Shown here one piece after another: positions 2,452 through 54,807 of a stretch of 54,807 nt of DNA (position 1 is the stretch's first letter; every line of letters begins with the position of its first letter). The notes under the pieces were generated by a model. The model was given only the letters and a program-made list of their open reading frames with translations, was not told where the DNA came from and did not search any database. A program made the position numbers and the translations under genes. This DNA is from Promethearchaeota archaeon (GTDB lineage: Archaea > Asgardarchaeota > Lokiarchaeia > Sigyniarchaeales > SOKP01): positions 1 to 54,807 of the forward strand of contig JBHLNZ010000015.1 of NCBI GenBank assembly GCA_048941015.1, written 5' to 3'.

Positions 2452-2509
2452 TCAATCCTTTTTATATTGTATTCTTTTAAATAATTCAAACAAGTTTAGG
2501 TTAAAAAAA

Positions 2510-3193
2510 ATGAGAAAAACTAATAAAATTTTATTCGGAACATTTGTTTTTTTGATGATTTTTACTATTGCTACTTCAATTAGTGTTGTTGCTGTTGGAC
2601 CTCCTGATCAAACCGTTGAAGTTCCTGGAGATACCGTTCAAACCCAATTACAAGCAAATATACATTATATGTTTCGATTTCGACAAAGAACTCAACTAAG
2701 ATTCAATGCAAATATAAATTTAGATTTAAATGCTGAATGTGAAGCATTAAGGATAGGAGAAAAAGAATTCCTTATTGAAGTCGAAGCGGAAAATGATTTA
2801 GAAATGAATATGACATGTACTCGAGAAGAAGAACAACTAGGTTTAATGATGGGTTCAACCCATAGGATAAGAAGCAGAAATACTTATAGATATCAAGAAG
2901 GATTTGTTTGTTCGATAGAATGTAATGGTACAATGCTTAAAGCTCGATTAAGAATACAAGCAACTAATCAAAATAGGCTTGGTCAATGGGCATATTATGA
3001 TGAGGCAAATGAAGGATGGGTAACCGTTCCAACAACTGTAGAAGATGGATACTTAACAGCCGAAGTTGATCATTTCTCAACTTGGACAATATTAATGCCA
3101 GATTACACTGTTCTAATCGTTGGAGTAATTATCGGCATCGTTGCTGCCTTAATAGTTATAGCATCAGTAATATATATCAGAAAACGAAAATAA
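2510..3193 (+). CDS. Membrane-anchored surface protein with juxtamembrane HFS motif
   Basis: ATG at 2510 gives a signal peptide (MRKTNKILFGTFVFL...), preferred over the ORF-track TTG at 2435. Beta-rich ectodomain ends ...GWVTVPTTVEDGYLTAEVDHFSTWTIL, then a TM helix and RKRK. Confidence 0.75.
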   Translation: MRKTNKILFGTFVFLMIFTIATSISVVAVGPPDQTVEVPGDTVQTQLQANIHYMFRFRQRTQLRFNANINLDLNAECEALRIGEKEFLIEVEAENDLEMNMTCTREEEQLGLMMGSTHRIRSRNTYRYQEGFVCSIECNGTMLKARLRIQATNQNRLGQWAYYDEANEGWVTVPTTVEDGYLTAEVDHFSTWTILMPDYTVLIVGVIIGIVAALIVIASVIYIRKRK

Positions 3194-3194
3194 A

Positions 3195-3205
3195 TTTTTT
3201 TTTTT
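3195..3205 (+). terminator. Oligo-T tract, possible intra-operon terminator
   Basis: T11 immediately after the stop codon of 2510-3193. Confidence 0.4.
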
Positions 3206-3246
3206 AATTTATATTTATATTAATTAATAGTTTTTAAACGATTGAC

Positions 3247-31047: not shown

Positions 31048-31160
31048 AAAAGTTTTATATCTAAAATTTTCTAAAATTTATTTATTTTTAAGAATTTAAA
31101 TTTAGAATCATTAAAAAAAAGCAAATTTTTATTCTGATTTCTCCACTCTTACTCAAATAT

Positions 31161-31397
31161 TCAATCAGAAGTTCTCACCATTAAAATTATTAAGATTATT
31201 AAAACAATAATCCATTTTACCGCATTGAGTATTGCCATTAAATAATTCAGCCCGGACAATAAAAAAAGGGAATTGAATGATGGAAAATCTACAAAAACAA
31301 TAATTATTATTAAGATCATAACTAAGATACACGCACAATTAGACCCAAACGGTTTTTCTTTTACATCTTCTTTATTGGATATACGAGGCATCCTCAA
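31161..31397 (-). CDS. Small 2-TM hypothetical protein
   Basis: 78-aa hydrophobic ORF in an intergenic space. Confidence 0.45.
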   Translation of the reverse strand: MRMPRISNKEDVKEKPFGSNCACILVMILIIIIVFVDFPSFNSLFLLSGLNYLMAILNAVKWIIVLIILIILMVRTSD

Positions 31398-31626
31398 ATA
31401 TCATATTATATCGATAATCATTTAAATATTTTGAAGAATAGTCACTTTTCGCTTAATTGGTCAAAAATAGAATTGGAGAGGGGAAAAATTTGAGCCCTTG
31501 ACTATAGTCCGAGCCAATGCATAGTTAAAGACATTAAAAAGGATACTTTTAAATTTAAATGATAATTTAGAAAAATATTTATCAAAATTCAGCTAAATCT
31601 ATTTATAATTCTTAAATTTATAGAAT

Positions 31627-46263: not shown

Positions 46264-47646
46264 TTAGTAGTCGTTTAATGCAAGTTTAATACGATTCACC
46301 ATTTCCGCAATTTGATGAATATCTATAGAAGAATAAGCAATTCTTATTCCATTTATGTTTTCCTGATCATTTTCAATAGGAATTACACCAACTTTATATT
46401 CTTTTAATAAGCATTCAGCAAATTCTGTTGCCTTAATCTTATCAGAGCTTAAATTTAAAAATATAAAGAATCCTCCAGAATTGGGATCAATTGATATATT
46501 AGGACTAACTATTTTTCTTAATTCCAAATTAAATTTTTCAAATCTCTTTTTAAGTAGATTTTTAACGGCTTCTCGTTCTTTAATAATTTTTTCCATTCCT
46601 TTTTCTTTAAAGATTTTTAAAGTGATTGCTTGATAAAAGTGATTACAATTAGATATTGTACTTCTTATCATCCCTGAAAGTTTATTATCTAATTCGGTCT
46701 TTAATTGCTCCAATTCTTCCAAATTATTAACCCAAGATGGCTTTAATCCCATTGTCATAAATCCAATTCGACCTCCATACATTAAAAGTTCCTTTGTGAT
46801 TCCATCTAATTTCAAAGGAATAATATCTTCCCTTAATTGTTGGAAATCATAAAAAATTGACCTATTAATTACACTCTCAGAATATGTATACGGTTCATAA
46901 GCATCATCGATCAATATAATTATTGGTTTATTAATTCTTTTTTGCAATGAGACTAAGGATTTAACAAATTGATTTGCTTCTTTCCAAGTTGGAATAAACC
47001 CGGTAGGATTATTAGGAAAACCTAATAATATTACTACTTTTTCTTGGGTTTTTGAAACTTCTAAAATAGATTTTTCTAATCCTTCAAAATTAAATTTATT
47101 ATCAAGCAAAAATTCAAACGAATAAATTTTAGCTCCTAAAAACCTTTCGATTATATTATCATAATTTTCCCATCTTTTATTTGGACAAATTACATATTCT
47201 CCAGGATTCAGAAACATAGCGCAACTTAAAAAAATAGCACTTGTAACTCCTGAAGTAATTATTGGAATCGAAGTAAAATTCATCAGATGATCGATTTTAT
47301 CTTTGTCAATTTGCTCTTTAAAGTTTGATTTCTTAATAATCCACTCTTTCCATATTGATCTTAAATCTTGTAAACCAGTAATCGAGGCATATGGAACCAA
47401 ATCATTAATTTTTAAATTTTTAATATAATTTTTGATATCTCCCAAATAACAGGGAAGCCATTCAGAAGTTCCATGATTGATAAAATCTTTTTCAAATGCA
47501 TAAGCAGTGCCAATCGTTCCAATAAAATCTGCTTCTTTTTTTGCTCTTCCAGACCAATAGAAGATCCCTTCTGGTAGATAAATTCTTTTTCCTAACTCAG
47601 AAAAACAATTATAAAGAGGAGTTTTTTTAAGTATAGTAAAATTCAT
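46264..47646 (-). CDS. Aminotransferase class I/II (PLP)
   Basis: FPNNPTG, DDAY, DGITKELLMYGGRIGF. Confidence 0.9.
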   Translation of the reverse strand: MNFTILKKTPLYNCFSELGKRIYLPEGIFYWSGRAKKEADFIGTIGTAYAFEKDFINHGTSEWLPCYLGDIKNYIKNLKINDLVPYASITGLQDLRSIWKEWIIKKSNFKEQIDKDKIDHLMNFTSIPIITSGVTSAIFLSCAMFLNPGEYVICPNKRWENYDNIIERFLGAKIYSFEFLLDNKFNFEGLEKSILEVSKTQEKVVILLGFPNNPTGFIPTWKEANQFVKSLVSLQKRINKPIIILIDDAYEPYTYSESVINRSIFYDFQQLREDIIPLKLDGITKELLMYGGRIGFMTMGLKPSWVNNLEELEQLKTELDNKLSGMIRSTISNCNHFYQAITLKIFKEKGMEKIIKEREAVKNLLKKRFEKFNLELRKIVSPNISIDPNSGGFFIFLNLSSDKIKATEFAECLLKEYKVGVIPIENDQENINGIRIAYSSIDIHQIAEMVNRIKLALNDY

Positions 47647-47728
47647 TATAACATTACTCCATTAATTTTCTTAACTAAAAATTATCCATAAAATAAATAT
47701 TTAAGTATCCTAAAATTAATAAAAAACT

Positions 47729-48355
47729 ATGAATGAGAATAATAATTCTAAAGAACCTGATCAAGAACTGAGTATTTCTTCAGATAAAGAAATTATAAAA
47801 GAAAACGTAATACTAAAAGGCTGGAATGATTTTGTGTCGAGTATATCTGAAGGGTTTAAAAAATTTCAAAAAAGTGTTGAAAATCAATCTAAAGAGAATT
47901 CCGAATTATGGAATGAAAATAAAGAGAAATTGGTTTCGTTTTTTACTAAAACTAAAGAACTTTGGGAAAATAATTTAAATGAATGGAATAAAGAATTACT
48001 GGATTTGCAATCTGAAAGTCAAGAACAATGGAATCAGAATAAAGAAAAAATAGATAGATTTTTTAAAGACACAAAACAAGAATGGGATAATAAATTAAAA
48101 AAATGGACATTAGATATTCAGCAAAAACAAATTGAAACAAAAGAACAATGGGAAGAGAGGAAGCAAAAGATTAGTGAAGATCTTAAAAATTGGCAAGACA
48201 AAACGCGCAGAGATTGGGAAAAAGGATTAAAATCATGGCGTAAAGAAATGATAAAAGGCTCCTATATGTTTTTAGTTTTTATGATACCAATTTTAGTAGT
48301 GTTTTTTGTTATAGTATGGTTAATAAATTGGCTATTAGGAGGCCTTAGAGGGTAA
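47729..48355 (+). CDS. Tail-anchored Trp-rich helical repeat protein
   Basis: Three ~40-aa W-periodic repeats and a C-terminal TM helix. Confidence 0.75.
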   Translation: MNENNNSKEPDQELSISSDKEIIKENVILKGWNDFVSSISEGFKKFQKSVENQSKENSELWNENKEKLVSFFTKTKELWENNLNEWNKELLDLQSESQEQWNQNKEKIDRFFKDTKQEWDNKLKKWTLDIQQKQIETKEQWEERKQKISEDLKNWQDKTRRDWEKGLKSWRKEMIKGSYMFLVFMIPILVVFFVIVWLINWLLGGLRG

Positions 48356-48386
48356 ATTTCATCCAATTATTAACTTTTTCATCAAA

Positions 48387-49046
48387 ATGTTCGAAATATT
48401 TATATTATCTTTCATAGTAGCATTGTCAGGTGCACTATCCCCCGGACCTTTACTTACATTTACAATATATAAATCTCTAAAGCAAAAAAAAGGATATTTA
48501 GCAGGATTATACATAGTATTAGGTCATGCTACTATAGAGTTAATTTTAATACTTGCATTACTAGCTGGTGCCTCTTATTTCTTCCAAAACCTCGTGATAC
48601 TCACTTTGATAGGCGTTGTAGGTGGTTGTTTTCTATTAATATTCGGCTTATTTATTATTAGAGACGTCTTAAATCAGAACTTCAACATCAATTTCAATCC
48701 CACAAATAATGATCTGAAAGGATATAAAGGAAATAGTTTCATAGGAGGTATTATCGTTAGCCTTTCTAATCCTTTCTGGGAATTCTGGTGGGCGGTTATT
48801 GGTCTAGGTTTCATGCTTTCTTTTAATATTAGTTTTGAGAATCCCTTAGGGATTTTATTATTCTTTTTAGGACATGAATTGGGAGATATTGTATGGTATT
48901 TGCCGATTTCAACATTTGTATCGCTAGGAGGCAAATCCCTTAATCCAAAAATCTATAAATATATTTTAATAATATGCGGAATTTTCATGATTATTTTTGG
49001 CATATATTTAATGATTAACATTATTTTTAACCCTCCTTCCCTGTAA
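48387..49046 (+). CDS. LysE-family translocator
   Basis: SGALSPGPL, GHATIE, SLSNPFWEFWW. Confidence 0.9.
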   Translation: MFEIFILSFIVALSGALSPGPLLTFTIYKSLKQKKGYLAGLYIVLGHATIELILILALLAGASYFFQNLVILTLIGVVGGCFLLIFGLFIIRDVLNQNFNINFNPTNNDLKGYKGNSFIGGIIVSLSNPFWEFWWAVIGLGFMLSFNISFENPLGILLFFLGHELGDIVWYLPISTFVSLGGKSLNPKIYKYILIICGIFMIIFGIYLMINIIFNPPSL

Positions 49047-50189: not shown

Positions 50190-52235
50190 TTACTCATCCG
50201 TTTCGAATAAACCTGAGTATGGTTCAATAAAATGATTTTGACACATGGGACAAGAATTATATTTAGAAAGCCAGGCAGCAACACAGAGATAATGATATGT
50301 ACTACCACAAAAAGGGCATGTGATTACTTTATCCTTGGCAAAATTAATATAATTATGACAAACAGTACATTGAACATCTGATAGAGTAACACCCTCACGT
50401 ATTTTAACTTTATTTGAAAGAATCTCTTCCGTTTTTGCTAATTCTACTTGATATAGTCCTAAACTGGATGTAAGTTGATTAATTTTAGCATTTAATTCTA
50501 TGATCCTATCTCTTAACTCATCTTCAGATAATCGTTCCGCTAAAAATGCTGAGAGAGCAAAATTTAAGGGTAATCCTTCATAATTTTCTGTCTGTTTAGT
50601 TATTTCAGTAATTTCTGCAAATAAGATAGATTCTTGATCTATTAAATCTTTAAAACTCTTAAAAACTTTATTTAATAAAACAGTTAATAGAAATGTTAAT
50701 TGCTGCTTTTTCCGATTAAAATTATTTTCCCATTGTTTAATAATTTGGAACAATTCAATGTTATTTGCTTTATATTTATCAAGCTTATTGTAAACTTCTT
50801 CTTTAATGTTCTCTATTTTTCCTTTATACTCTGTTAGAAGTTCTCGAATTTTTTTTAATTGAGGTAATTCTTTCCTTATCAGAATAGAGGTTTGATCTTC
50901 ATATTCACTTATCATTTTATTAACTTCAGAAATTTTTTCATTTATATATCTCCTAACTTCCACTCGTAAACTCTCATCTCTGACACTCTCAAGATAACTT
51001 AAATATTCATTTTTTCTACGATCAATTTCTGAACTTAAACTTGAAATTGTTTTTTTTAAATTTACTGTTATAACCTCAAAGGGTTTTAATAATTTATCAA
51101 GGTTTATTAACCACACTTCTATTTCATCGAATTTAGAAGCAAATAAACCTATTTTATCATAGTGAGAGTATACTATGTCAATGAATTTATCAGTTTTTTC
51201 CTCATCAAGGTCACTGATAATAATTTGAAACTTTTTATCTAAACCTTTAAAATATAAATCAACTAGTTTTGGTAAGAAAATATTAAATTTTTTTTCCATC
51301 AATTTCTTAAGATCTAATTTTTCTTTCTGTTCTTTTTCAAATAATTGAAATTCTTTTTCCAATTCTAAGATTTCTTGAAAATAATCATCTAAATTATCCT
51401 CGATTAGAGACATTACAACCGGACGTAATTTTAACTTCAAATTTTTTATAATCTCTTTTCTTTCAAGAACATTAATAAATTCTTCTTCAACTTCATACAC
51501 ATCGAAGATATCAACTATATATAAAAGATAAATCAGATCTTCGAACGCTTTATTTGACCCCTCTTGTTTGGTTAAGAAATATTGATACAATTCGTCAAAA
51601 TGAAATGATAATGGGATTTCCTTATATAGTTTAATTTTCTTTTTCGTTTTAGCTTCGACTAAACTTTGAATGTAAGTTTCAATTTCTGCTATCTCTTGCC
51701 ACTTTTTCAGTTCATCGGGTATGTTGTTTAACTTAAAATTCAGATTCTTAATTTTATTCGTTTCAATCCATAAATAAATATTATCTTCGTACGTTTTATC
51801 TATCTTTTTCTTATGTTTTTCTAAGTTAGTTGAAAGAAGTTCAGCCTCATTTAAAATAATTTTAGTCTTCGCCAATAAATCGCTGAGAAATTTGTTTTCT
51901 TTTAATAATCTTTTGATATTTCTTCCATTATCACTAACATTTGCTAAATTTTTAGAAATCAAATCTAGTTCTTCTTGTATCTTTGATTTCAAATTAAAAA
52001 AATACTTATCATCTGATTCCGATAATAAAAATTGTTCAATAAAATTTCTTATATCTTTTGTATATTTATCATAATTTTCTAAAATGTCATTTTGGAATTT
52101 TATTTTTAAAAAATCATTTAACGCTTCATTATCTGATTTTAGTTCAGATAATTTATTTTTCATCTGTAAAATTTCTTCTTTTGTGAATCCTTTGATTTCT
52201 CTGATATCATTAAAAGAGTTATTAAATAGGTACAA
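50190..52235 (-). CDS. Long helical/coiled-coil protein with C-terminal C4HC3 RING finger (putative E3 ligase)
   Basis: CTVC...CPFCGSTYHYLCVAAWLSKYNSCPMC. Confidence 0.82.
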   Translation of the reverse strand: MYLFNNSFNDIREIKGFTKEEILQMKNKLSELKSDNEALNDFLKIKFQNDILENYDKYTKDIRNFIEQFLLSESDDKYFFNLKSKIQEELDLISKNLANVSDNGRNIKRLLKENKFLSDLLAKTKIILNEAELLSTNLEKHKKKIDKTYEDNIYLWIETNKIKNLNFKLNNIPDELKKWQEIAEIETYIQSLVEAKTKKKIKLYKEIPLSFHFDELYQYFLTKQEGSNKAFEDLIYLLYIVDIFDVYEVEEEFINVLERKEIIKNLKLKLRPVVMSLIEDNLDDYFQEILELEKEFQLFEKEQKEKLDLKKLMEKKFNIFLPKLVDLYFKGLDKKFQIIISDLDEEKTDKFIDIVYSHYDKIGLFASKFDEIEVWLINLDKLLKPFEVITVNLKKTISSLSSEIDRRKNEYLSYLESVRDESLRVEVRRYINEKISEVNKMISEYEDQTSILIRKELPQLKKIRELLTEYKGKIENIKEEVYNKLDKYKANNIELFQIIKQWENNFNRKKQQLTFLLTVLLNKVFKSFKDLIDQESILFAEITEITKQTENYEGLPLNFALSAFLAERLSEDELRDRIIELNAKINQLTSSLGLYQVELAKTEEILSNKVKIREGVTLSDVQCTVCHNYINFAKDKVITCPFCGSTYHYLCVAAWLSKYNSCPMCQNHFIEPYSGLFETDE

Positions 52236-52405: not shown

Positions 52406-53023
52406 TTATTCCCCTAACTCTTTAATTTCGAAACTTTTCTCTTTTGTAGCATTCTTGGTAATGATCAATAAGTCAATACCATTTCCTGACATCGCATCTC
52501 TTGTTATTGAGTTCCGAATTGCTTTTTCAACTAGTTTTTCACCTTGCGCAACTGTCATATCCGGTTTATATTCTGCTTCTAAAATGCCGTAAGAGAAGAG
52601 CATTCCTGTACCAACAGCAGCAAAATCTTCTGGAATTAAAGAGCCAAGAGCATCCAATGTATATAATTTAGGACCATCTTCATCAACTCCTGCTACAACT
52701 AAATTAGTATATAGAGGTGCCATTTTTCGCGAGTAAAGAAAGTTCGAAACTAATTTAGCTAAACTTTGTGTTGTTATACGTTCACCAGCATCTAATTCAT
52801 ATAGATTAGATTGTGCACGAAGTATTCTTACTAAAATCTGAAAATCACCAATCAGTCCATAAGCTGCTAATCCGATATTATCTGTAATTTTGAATACTTT
52901 GCGTGTGTTTTTATTAGTTACTGTATAACCCCATGTAGCCCTTCGGTCACTGCCCAAAACTACTCCGTCCTTACACTTAATAGCGACACTTGCCGCCCCT
53001 GGAACCATAATTTGCTGAGACAT
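52406..53023 (-). CDS. psmB: Proteasome beta subunit lacking the catalytic Thr1
   Basis: PGAASVAIKCKDGVVLGSDRRAT...KVFKI...GLIGDFQ...RDAMSGNGID. Confidence 0.95.
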   Translation of the reverse strand: MSQQIMVPGAASVAIKCKDGVVLGSDRRATWGYTVTNKNTRKVFKITDNIGLAAYGLIGDFQILVRILRAQSNLYELDAGERITTQSLAKLVSNFLYSRKMAPLYTNLVVAGVDEDGPKLYTLDALGSLIPEDFAAVGTGMLFSYGILEAEYKPDMTVAQGEKLVEKAIRNSITRDAMSGNGIDLLIITKNATKEKSFEIKELGE

Positions 53024-53143
53024 AATTTTTCCTTTAGTTGAATTTTTTAACTATTTTATTAGTATAAATAATATAGAATTAATTAAAATTTTTGTTTTAA
53101 ATTATAACATTTTACTGGAAACTTCCAAAAACAAAATACTTTT

Positions 53144-53187
53144 ATGCTCATTATATGACTATAGTTTTTAAAACTACATTTGAGCAT
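53144..53187. repeat. Nested inverted repeat
   Basis: ATGCTCA...TGAGCAT enclosing TAGTTTT-T-AAAACTA. Confidence 0.5.
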
Positions 53188-53280
53188 GTGATTTGTAGAT
53201 TAAAGTCATTGTTTATTCATTATTTCTATTACGACTTATCAATAATGATCATCGCATTAATAATACGTGATTGATATGGG

Positions 53281-53614
53281 ATGAATTTTTTTCCCCTAAA
53301 TTTTTTTTAATTCTCTAGGCTATCATAATAAAACACATCAAAAAGACCAATTGACCATAATTATTATTTGAATAATTACGATACAAACAAAATTAATTCA
53401 AATTTTATAAGTGATCAACCAATTAATGATCATATCTTTCTTGATCACTTACTAGTTTGGGATAATGTTTTTTGATTAAAATTTTTTTAATTCTCCTTTA
53501 AGTTATAGCAAAACTAATCTTAAAGCCCGTTTAATCAAGATTAATCATTGAATAATTTTGACTCTAAAAAAATCAATTCATCTTTTTCGAATGATCAACC
53601 ACTGCATGATCATA
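53281..53614. repeat. Degenerate 180-bp non-coding tandem repeat with phased TGATCA sites
   Basis: 53281-53434 vs 53461-53614 align without gaps at 105/154 identities (hand count). Confidence 0.8.
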
Positions 53615-53815
53615 GATGAATATCCTTTAATTGAAATCAAAATTTTTTGTCGTAATTTTTTATTCGTTTAACTTCCCACTTTCTTCACATTCCTACAAAA
53701 CATTTAAATAACTCTTCGGATATAATATAATCTAAGAAACTCTAAAAATAAACTAAAAATAAATTAAAAACTGAAAAAATAAAAATTTTTCACAAAAAAG
53801 TGGAGGAATGAAATT

Positions 53816-54034
53816 ATGGCTAAAAAGAAACATTCGTTCGCATGGAGCCCAATCAGAAGATTAATGAAACAGCAAGGAGCTTCAATCGTAGCAAGAAATG
53901 CTGTAGATTTATTAATTGATCATCTTGAAAAGACAGCATCTGGATTGACTGAACAAGCAAGAGCTTTCACCATGCATGCCAACCGCAAGAAAATCACCAA
54001 GAACGATTTACTTCTTGCGATTAAATATAAATAA
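53816..54034 (+). CDS. Archaeal histone
   Basis: PIRRLMKQQGASIVARNAV...HANRKKITKNDLLLA histone fold; GGAGG upstream. Confidence 0.95.
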   Translation: MAKKKHSFAWSPIRRLMKQQGASIVARNAVDLLIDHLEKTASGLTEQARAFTMHANRKKITKNDLLLAIKYK

Positions 54035-54071
54035 ACTTAATTAACAGAAGTTTGGGCTCAAACAAGATATA

Positions 54072-54099
54072 ATTTTTAATTTTTTTTCTTTTTTTTTCT
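54072..54099 (+). terminator. Oligo-T terminator of the histone gene
   Basis: Successive T-runs after the histone stop. Confidence 0.5.
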
Positions 54100-54107
54100 C
54101 AATGAAG

Positions 54108-54807
54108 TTATGAAACTTTTTTTCTCATGCTTTTTAATAGAGAATTAATTAAAATGCCTAATAATGCTCCAATGCCAATAATTGAAACTAATGGTATGAT
54201 TATCAAAAAAATATCACGATACGTGCATGATCCATTATTATAAAAGAAGTTATTTTTACAAGCTATTTCCTTAATACAAACATCATTTCCTATAAAAACA
54301 TTACCTGTAATCTTATTAGAATCACTATCAAAAAGATATAGCCCCCATTCATGATTATTTGTAACGGTATTTCTCGAAATAATATTTTTATCGCTATGAG
54401 ATAATTCAATTCCTTTAAACGTATTGTTATCTACTATATTTTCCGAGATAATATTATTATCACTATAAAAGATCCCAATTCCATTTAAATTCTTTTTTAG
54501 TGTATTACCCGAAATAAGATTCTCAACACTATCAAAAAGGAAAATACCATTATGATTATATTCTCCATTATTTTCAGAAATAACATTATAATAACTAGTA
54601 TCCAATCTAATTCCGCAAGAATTATTATTAGCTTTGTTTCTCAAAATATTATTTTTAAAACTCTTTGATAAGTAAATTCCATTAATATTGTTATTTGCTA
54701 TATTTTCCGAAATAGTATTATAATCACTTTGATACAATTTAATCCCATAATGATTATTAAAACTTACATTATTTTCTGTAATGACGTTATTATCTGATTG
54801 AGATAAA
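54108..54807 (-). CDS. NosD/parallel beta-helix surface protein with C-terminal TM (5' end truncated)
   Basis: ~22-aa repeats GIxLxxSxxNxIxxN; the frame stays open from the ORF-track start to the window end. Confidence 0.88.
   Translation of the reverse strand, partial: LSQSDNNVITENNVSFNNHYGIKLYQSDYNTISENIANNNINGIYLSKSFKNNILRNKANNNSCGIRLDTSYYNVISENNGEYNHNGIFLFDSVENLISGNTLKKNLNGIGIFYSDNNIISENIVDNNTFKGIELSHSDKNIISRNTVTNNHEWGLYLFDSDSNKITGNVFIGNDVCIKEIACKNNFFYNNGSCTYRDIFLIIIPLVSIIGIGALLGILINSLLKSMRKKVS

Follow-up and report, generated by a model that had tools for sequence, protein, structure and literature searches.

Locus and neighbouring genes

The window, that is, the whole stretch of 54,807 nucleotides that was analysed, is contig C15 of an archaeal genome of 3.59 Mb with 29% GC, termed G000 in the following. 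Within the window, a spacer of 792 bp (53024-53815), which with 22% GC is the AT-richest region around, lies between the divergent genes for a proteasome beta subunit (psmB) and a histone. The histone protein has 89-100% amino acid identity in 42 relatives and 75% in G044. Among the several histone paralogues of G000 it is the only one whose gene carries the upstream module described below. Matches to Pfam families in the window include gelsolin, longin, RING and TFIIB domains, which points to an archaeon of Asgard type; the same Pfam analysis of the window found no partition genes and no candidate regulator gene adjoining the locus. On its other side, the proteasome subunit gene adjoins a gene on the minus strand (50190-52235) for a lysine/glutamate-rich protein of 681 aa with a C-terminal RING-H2 finger (PF13639). 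A second long spacer in the window (31048-31626, 579 bp) holds only an open reading frame of 78 aa without a family match and is poorly conserved in the compared stretches of relatives.

The features of the locus, with the strand where one applies, are:

52406-53023, minus strand: psmB, proteasome beta subunit gene, open reading frame of 205 aa (Pfam PF00227, E 1.3e-55), the divergent neighbour
53095-53108, minus strand: block TTTTAAATTATAAC, conserved in the one-copy alignment, putative TATA-like box of the proteasome gene
53245-53252: palindrome ATGATCAT (A site), left boundary of the array; most one-copy genomes keep a homologous GATC core, 165 bp upstream of B
53253-53433: repeat copy 1, 181 bp, ending in the second ATGATCAT (53426-53433); orthologous copy-1 units form clades of their own
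53298-53315: A/T box AAATTTTTTTTAATTCTC of copy 1, with its copy-2 equivalent at 53478-53495; the T-run columns are invariant in 27 units
53368-53400: inverted pair of TTGAAT (53368) and ATTCA (53396), with copy-2 equivalents at 53548 and 53576; columns invariant or nearly so
53412-53432: TGATCA-N9-TGATCA inverted repeat of copy 1 (B1, C1); B1 decayed and C1 kept in most other two-copy genomes of genus g1
53434-53613: repeat copy 2, 180 bp, ending in the third ATGATCAT (53606-53613)
53442-53447: extra TGATCA, 15 bp past C1, exact in G000 only among the genomes examined
53592-53612: TGATCAACCACTGCATGATCA, inverted repeat of copy 2 (B2, C2), 224/209 bp before the histone ATG
53643-53661: TTTTTTGTCGTAATTTTTT box between array and core promoter; TTGTC core invariant in 14 genomes of 9 genera
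53703-53710, plus strand: TTTAAATA, putative TATA box of the histone gene, invariant in alignments
53731-53736, plus strand: TCTAAG, likely start region, following the TATA box
53816-54034, plus strand: histone gene, open reading frame of 72 aa (Pfam PF00808, E 2.6e-9)

A tandem repeat of 180 bp in the spacer

The initial annotation, made from the sequence alone, had described a gapless repeat of 180 bp upstream of the histone gene, and 53281-53434 indeed matches 53461-53614 at 105 of 154 positions, at an offset of 180 and free of gaps. The best self-match of 154 nt in the entire spacer, with 106 identities, lies at the same offset. These values are far above those of 300 dinucleotide-preserving shuffles (mean 73.9, sd 2.0, maximum 81), and the head-to-tail copies are more alike than chance, as is characteristic of a tandem DNA duplication. 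The repeat also deserves to be called hidden: Tandem Repeats Finder gave no 180-bp repeat, and a separate repeat search recovered 110 nt at 71% and 32 nt at 81% identity, both spaced by 180. Altogether, the two copies in G000 are 65-68% identical. Stop codons in all six frames, previously noticed for copy 2, are present in both copies with at least two per frame.

The 8-bp palindrome ATGATCAT, of which the G000 genome contains 115 occurrences, bounds the units at 53245, 53426 and 53606, with spacings of 181 and 180 bp. A partial third copy had been proposed around 53210-53255. It is weak, as had been said, and it fits the 180-bp offset poorly, with 16 of 46 identities compared to 25 of 46 at offset 181; in essence, this third copy is the ATGATCAT boundary site. 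Other chunks of 792 bp from the window also contain gapless self-matches, namely 101/154 in 54001-54792 (offset 132) and 100/154 in 47601-48392 (offset 120); the former begins just upstream of, and overlaps, a NosD/beta-helix repeat gene (54108-54737).

Organization of the module and the promoter

Each unit presents the same order of elements: ATGATCA(T); GGGAT; the A/T box (AAAATTTTTTTAATTC); ATAA.AAA; TTGAAT followed after approximately 23 bp by ATTCA; and TGATCA-N9-TGATCA. The last unit is followed by TTTTTTGTCGTAATTTTTT, then TTTAAATA (TATA), TCTAAG, an A-rich leader and GGAGGA. Of these elements, the inverted repeat of B2 and C2 is the best-conserved operator-like one, and the spacer ACCAnnnnn of the B-C pair recurs in genus g12 at -223/-208. 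The A/T box is possibly a bend element or a weak promoter-like box. Two words are enriched in the units, TGATCA and, as the second, ATTCAA/TTGAAT, the latter at 5.5-fold over its genome frequency in 59 units; this is descriptive only, as the units are kin by descent. The G000 genome has no other occurrence of the TGATCAACCA pair, of the TTTTGTCG box or of the exact A/T box.

Two potential secondary structures were considered and dismissed. The TTTTGTCG box is complementary to part of the 5' untranslated region, but this match is AT-rich and its arm in the untranslated region is missing in one-copy genomes, which indicates chance. Equally, a larger hairpin TTCATCT...AGATGAA around the copy-2 pair of G000 is absent from one-copy genomes, as judged by eye on the alignment. 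The A-rich histone 5' leader contains an 11-bp tandem repeat, CTAAAAATAAA x2.6 (53742-53770), and other histone paralogues of G000 (contigs C118, C137, C141 and C95) are matched by leaders and Shine-Dalgarno regions like those of this histone gene.

TGATCA sites and their phasing

The six TGATCA sites reported for the region (53246, 53412, 53427, 53442, 53592 and 53607) are all exactly in place. The hexamer as such is not enriched in G000, with 1041 sites or 0.29/kb against a composition expectation of 0.33/kb, and neighbouring TGATCA sites exactly 15 bp apart occur three times genome-wide, every one at the histone locus. The near-matches TGACCA (53352) and TAATCA (53532) fall in phase as described; four further one-mismatch sites, which had gone unmentioned, are out of phase (53181, 53236, 53473 and 53542). 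Since 180 equals 12 x 15, the copy-2 sites share the phase of copy 1 by descent, and what is in phase independently of this amounts to the B-C pair with its 15 bp, one near-match position and the additional site at 53442. G046, which is among the closest relatives and sister to G000 in the unit tree, has the other five TGATCA sites without that at 53442. Of the proposed 15-bp phasing, the TGATCA pair is a conserved feature, while the wider phasing results mostly from the duplication or is specific to G000. In most other two-copy genomes of genus g1, one TGATCA of each pair has decayed; an intact pair is hence not required in both copies.

A conservation profile of the pooled alignment peaks at period 15 (power 6.9, block-shuffle p 0.005-0.011). 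Period 15 is not the top period in the subgroups, where 12, 10.5 and 18 lead, and the way in which the units were cut, with TGATCA sites 180 bp apart in each, inflates the signal; it is kept as a hint only. The tetramer GATC is not avoided in the G000 genome. A possible sensing of GATC methylation, as considered in the initial annotation, gained no support: G000 has, on contig C138 (11310-11612), only a marginal match of 22.8 bits to the D12 class N6-adenine methyltransferase family.

Conservation, spacing and linkage to the histone gene

Alignments of the histone spacer to six relatives, each with 20 kb of flanking sequence, extend in all six over 329-715 bp, at 64-76% identity and with 0-4 gaps opened. 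As controls, not necessarily syntenic, ten further spacers of the window were compared: of 60 comparisons, 27 gave patches of only 27-101 bp and 33 gave no alignment. The neighbouring psmB gene shows 71-74% nucleotide identity, although its four-fold sites have reached saturation, with an identity of 0.29-0.42 across 10 genomes, so that a non-coding module is conserved to the same extent as a protein gene. The initial annotation had called the region length-constrained; in line with this, despite such saturation, 27 units align with single-base indels only and an alignment of 59 units retains 180 of 188 columns.

The palindromes keep a constant distance from the core promoter. The GATC core of the first (B) site is kept in 40 of the 43 genomes compared in detail, the core of its partner 15 bp away in 25 of 43, and the box (TTGTC core) is 53-56 bp from the TATA box in 42 of 43. 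Distances upstream are equally narrow, with 165-166 bp from A to B, 15 bp from B to C and approximately 54 bp from the B site to the TTTTGTCG box, and the distance of the TGATCA-N9-TGATCA pair to the histone start is conserved among genomes. Extra DNA or genes are found between psmB and the module in 16 of the 43 genomes, never between the module and the histone gene, and in all 16 the module-to-histone distance is unaltered. With insertions on the psmB side only and the spacing on the histone side intact, the module belongs to the histone gene; psmB is not functionally tied to it. The inserted genes differ between species, for example an open reading frame resembling a SAM-methyltransferase (L011 of G019, 2490-3230) and membrane-protein open reading frames (L010 of G013, 322-1451), which suggests that insertions recur at a spot immediately before the module.

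Distribution in relatives and history of the duplication

By DNA search, the region is present in all 24 congeners sampled, and copy 2 together with promoter and histone gene aligns in 113 of 135 family genomes (E <= 1e-25). The match from copy 2 to the histone gene is full-length in genera g1, g12 and g16; in eight other genera it extends only from the TTTTGTCG box on. In the detailed comparison, 19 of the 43 genomes have two copies (10 of g1, 9 of g12), 21 have one recognisable copy (14 of g1, 5 of g16 and one each of g17 and g22), and three, from g13, g14 and g15, retain the promoter-proximal part only. Loss of the period and of the TGATCA phasing in relatives had been named as the sign of a neutral decaying duplication; instead, the repeat at offset 180 recurs in these 19 genomes of two genera, with period 181 in two of them. 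Where this was measured, 89-111 of 150 positions are identical at offset 180 or 181, and another six genomes of g1 have an identity of 0.47-0.56 between their copies.

One-copy genomes of g1 carry TGATCA at -382, -217 and -202 from the ATG, and two ATGATCA(T) sites are already 180 bp apart in them, so that a duplication between these two sites yields the exact array of G000. An ancestor would thus have duplicated the 180 bp between two ATGATCAT sites, possibly by unequal exchange or slippage at the 8-bp repeats, with both copies subsequently kept at intact length. In the tree of 59 units, the two copies of a genome never group as sisters, and clades specific to one copy extend across species (100/99 support), which indicates that the duplication is old and that both copies have been retained. 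It may have been a single ancient event.

Coding capacity, RNA structure and transcripts

Conservation of the module has no period-3 component (power 0.52, p 0.2). A micro-open reading frame of approximately 23 codons starting from TTGAAT is open in most one-copy and copy-2 units and was nevertheless rejected: its substitutions, which fall chiefly on the first and second codon positions, are not protein-like, and neither copy 1 of six genomes nor G007 keeps the frame open. RNAalifold on 27 units predicts no pairs for the plus strand and hardly any for the minus strand (-0.03 kcal/mol), single-sequence fold z-scores of -1.58 and -1.20 are not significant, and the same applies to covariation in the pairing of the TGATCA pair, as 35 of 500 shuffles reach the observed score. 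In Rfam, the best matches (E 0.66-7.2) are chance-level snoRNA and miRNA hits far below gathering scores. A search for further copies in the G000 genome retrieved only short AT-rich chance matches, the best with E 7.5e-4 over 27 nt. The module is neither coding sequence nor a structured RNA, and it is not a mobile element, MITE or dispersed repeat. A scan for sigma-70 promoters and intrinsic terminators, models not appropriate for archaea, gave no more sites than in shuffled sequences.

Five wetland metatranscriptome runs share few words (0.04-0.06) with the locus. Contigs from four of these runs cover 53747-54066 only, although assembled contigs cannot show the absence of a transcript elsewhere. 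With 3-11 differences per piece, they represent the histone mRNA of a relative. The RNA contigs of this close relative begin at 53747-53785, which as contig ends cannot show the transcript start, and run through the histone gene.

A putative control platform for the histone promoter

The 792-bp spacer is most likely one long, strongly constrained non-coding control region of the histone gene. Its core is the module of approximately 180 bp between ATGATCAT palindromes; the TTTTGTCG box, then the TATA box and the start of the transcript follow at fixed distances. Sequence-specific proteins would assemble on the sites, among them at least one dimer recognising (A)TGATCA(T); the conserved words TGATCA and ATGATCAT are DNA palindromes, as expected for dimeric DNA-binding proteins. 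The resulting complex of fixed geometry, a loop or a wrap, would then set transcription from the histone promoter approximately 100-450 bp downstream, and the duplication would supply a second set of sites. Of the possibilities raised by the initial annotation, a nucleoprotein or regulator platform is the one that best accounts for the offset-180 repeat, the position of the pair and the nearly indel-free spacing, and we give about an even chance to a spacing-constrained cis-regulatory platform for the histone promoter that is read by sequence-specific proteins. That proteins bind, that they regulate and how the duplication arose is what we infer from these patterns. As the motifs occur at no other locus of G000, no regulon backs the transcription factor, and a dedicated or autoregulatory factor must be assumed. 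Furthermore, known archaeal regulators usually act beside or over the core promoter, so that 100-450 bp upstream of the TATA box is far.

Several known systems share aspects of this arrangement. Sites of archaeal Lrp/Ptr2-type or other dimeric regulators are, like the palindromes of the module, located at fixed positions upstream of BRE/TATA, and several sites with conserved spacing suggest cooperative binding in both cases. However, the Lrp/Ptr2-type examples span tens of bp by the promoter, whereas the module extends over approximately 275 bp (one copy) to 455 bp (two copies), is without an adjacent regulator gene and has its motifs at one locus only. The looping operators of bacteria (lac, gal, ara, deo) resemble the module in that identical palindromes are 150-200 bp apart and indels are disfavoured, and a constraint of the looping type would explain the 180-bp distance from A to C. 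In looping systems, on the other hand, the DNA between operators usually varies freely, whereas the intervening DNA of the module is conserved in blocks; looping is hypothetical here. The paired upstream activating sequences of yeast histone genes, bound by Spt10, are paired sites found at histone genes only and point in the same way to a dedicated regulator of histone supply. There is, however, no relationship to the Spt10 system in sequence or protein, the module is archaeal, and only one of several histone paralogues carries it.

Alternative explanations

The units could alternatively be genes for small, largely unstructured non-coding RNAs, or parts of a long alternative 5' leader of the histone mRNA, with the A/T box as promoter, TTTTTTGTCGTAATTTTTT as terminator and the duplication as two copies of an RNA gene. 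AAAATTTTTTAT-like strings, which are similar to the A/T box, precede several tRNA genes of G000; the conserved ATAA.AAA block follows approximately 25 nt past the A/T box; T-runs occur after the array, where the TTTTTTGTCGTAATTTTTT box would fit an oligo-T terminator; and uniqueness in the genome is common to many RNA genes. We nevertheless hold this explanation to be unlikely in view of the folding and Rfam results given above, a GC content of 22% against 29% for the genome, and the presence of T5-T8 runs inside the putative RNA. The most conserved words, moreover, are perfect DNA palindromes, the A site is without a complementary partner close by in one-copy genomes (the closest TGATCA is 165 bp off), and the A/T box lacks the TTTAAA core common to two neighbouring promoter-like boxes. 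A quite improbable alternative is an array that positions histones or controls the histone promoter by autoregulation, as had been read from 180 bp being six times 30 bp: archaeal histone dimers step in 30 bp, and six such steps would seat a defined multimer. A period of 180 bp (181 in two) kept in 19 two-copy genomes, an A-C distance of 180 bp in one-copy genomes, the near absence of indels and the specificity for a histone gene all agree with this. Against it, neither G/C nor AA/TT shows a 10-10.5-bp periodicity, the mean power of 0.7-1.6 in 59 units being at noise level, and a period of 30 does not stand out when the conservation profile is pooled (power 0.66, permutation p 0.12), ranking second in the copy-2 subgroup only. 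The 180-bp period is rather set by the spacing of two ATGATCAT sites, because it is already present in one-copy genomes. The region is also extremely AT-rich and contains long runs of A/T, a kind of DNA that archaeal histones reportedly avoid, and conservation in discrete words including palindromes indicates sequence-specific readers.

A unique chromosomal site, that is, a replication origin or partition site, had equally been suggested and is highly improbable. The spacer does resemble archaeal origins with ORB repeats in being long, AT-rich, unique in the genome, conserved in the family and repeat-bearing, and it holds palindromes as well. Such origins differ from the module, however, in their linkage to orc1/cdc6: the three Orc1/Cdc6 genes of G000 are located on contigs C58, C64 and C129, and in five relatives for which long contigs exist (G104, G125, G008, G018 and G076), the locus has no such gene in its vicinity; there, the nearest match over the cut-off is approximately 96 kb away and a sub-threshold one in G125 is at 38 kb. 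The GC skew of the 55-kb contig follows gene direction only, the window is devoid of partition genes, and a fixed distance to the histone promoter would not be needed by an origin. Nothing clear was seen among repeats around the three orc1/cdc6 genes of G000. Finally, a neutral tandem duplication in decay would be compatible with the divergence of the copies (identity of 65-68% in G000, of 47-56% in six others of g1) and with the loss of some TGATCA sites. Both copies, however, persist at full length in 19 genomes of two genera, and orthologous copies are more alike than saturated neutral sites, with indels nearly absent; conservation and fixed spacing in the face of such saturation lead us to reject neutral decay, which we consider scarcely credible. 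The remaining probability is assigned to mechanisms outside these explanations.

Significance of the control region

If the spacing-constrained platform for the histone promoter is accepted as the preferred explanation, a more far-reaching version of it can be formulated, which in its full form is unlikely: an enhancer-like platform of fixed geometry and 275-455 bp that serves one histone gene in the Asgard archaea of this family and on which dedicated palindrome-binding proteins, possibly together with histone, would loop or wrap the DNA. This platform would be modular, because it was duplicated and retained as a unit. The archaea most closely related to eukaryotes would then possess a cis-regulatory architecture of eukaryote-like size. 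Promoters in archaea tend to be compact, and, as far as titles and the openings of abstracts go, such an element was not found in the literature. What is unusual in any case is that several hundred bp of non-coding DNA are conserved like the neighbouring protein gene, nearly free of indels and tied to a histone gene across several genera, which gives a concrete handle on the control of histone supply in Asgard archaea. As the element is sharply delimited by the ATGATCAT boundaries, the TGATCA-N9-TGATCA pair and the TTTTGTCG box and comes in natural one- and two-copy variants, tests of binding, spacing and transcription can be designed directly.

Motif repeats at other loci

The only other dense TGATCA cluster of G000 is located on contig C48 (20560-20601), where five TGATCA at 9-bp spacing apparently form a 9-bp tandem repeat. 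Searches for motif patterns used the reversed word as control, a poor choice as words containing CTAG may be rare for other reasons. In a relative of the same order (G051, C1:2117284-2117436), TGATCAAAACTATCGTGATCA occurs in five identical copies at 33-bp spacing, unrelated to the histone locus. Furthermore, several relatives of genera g16, g22 and g12 contain TGATCAACAGCGTGCTGATCA or a near variant of it (for example L058, G121:C2:125806, and L060-L063); these sites are GC-richer and conserved and probably lie inside a coding gene.
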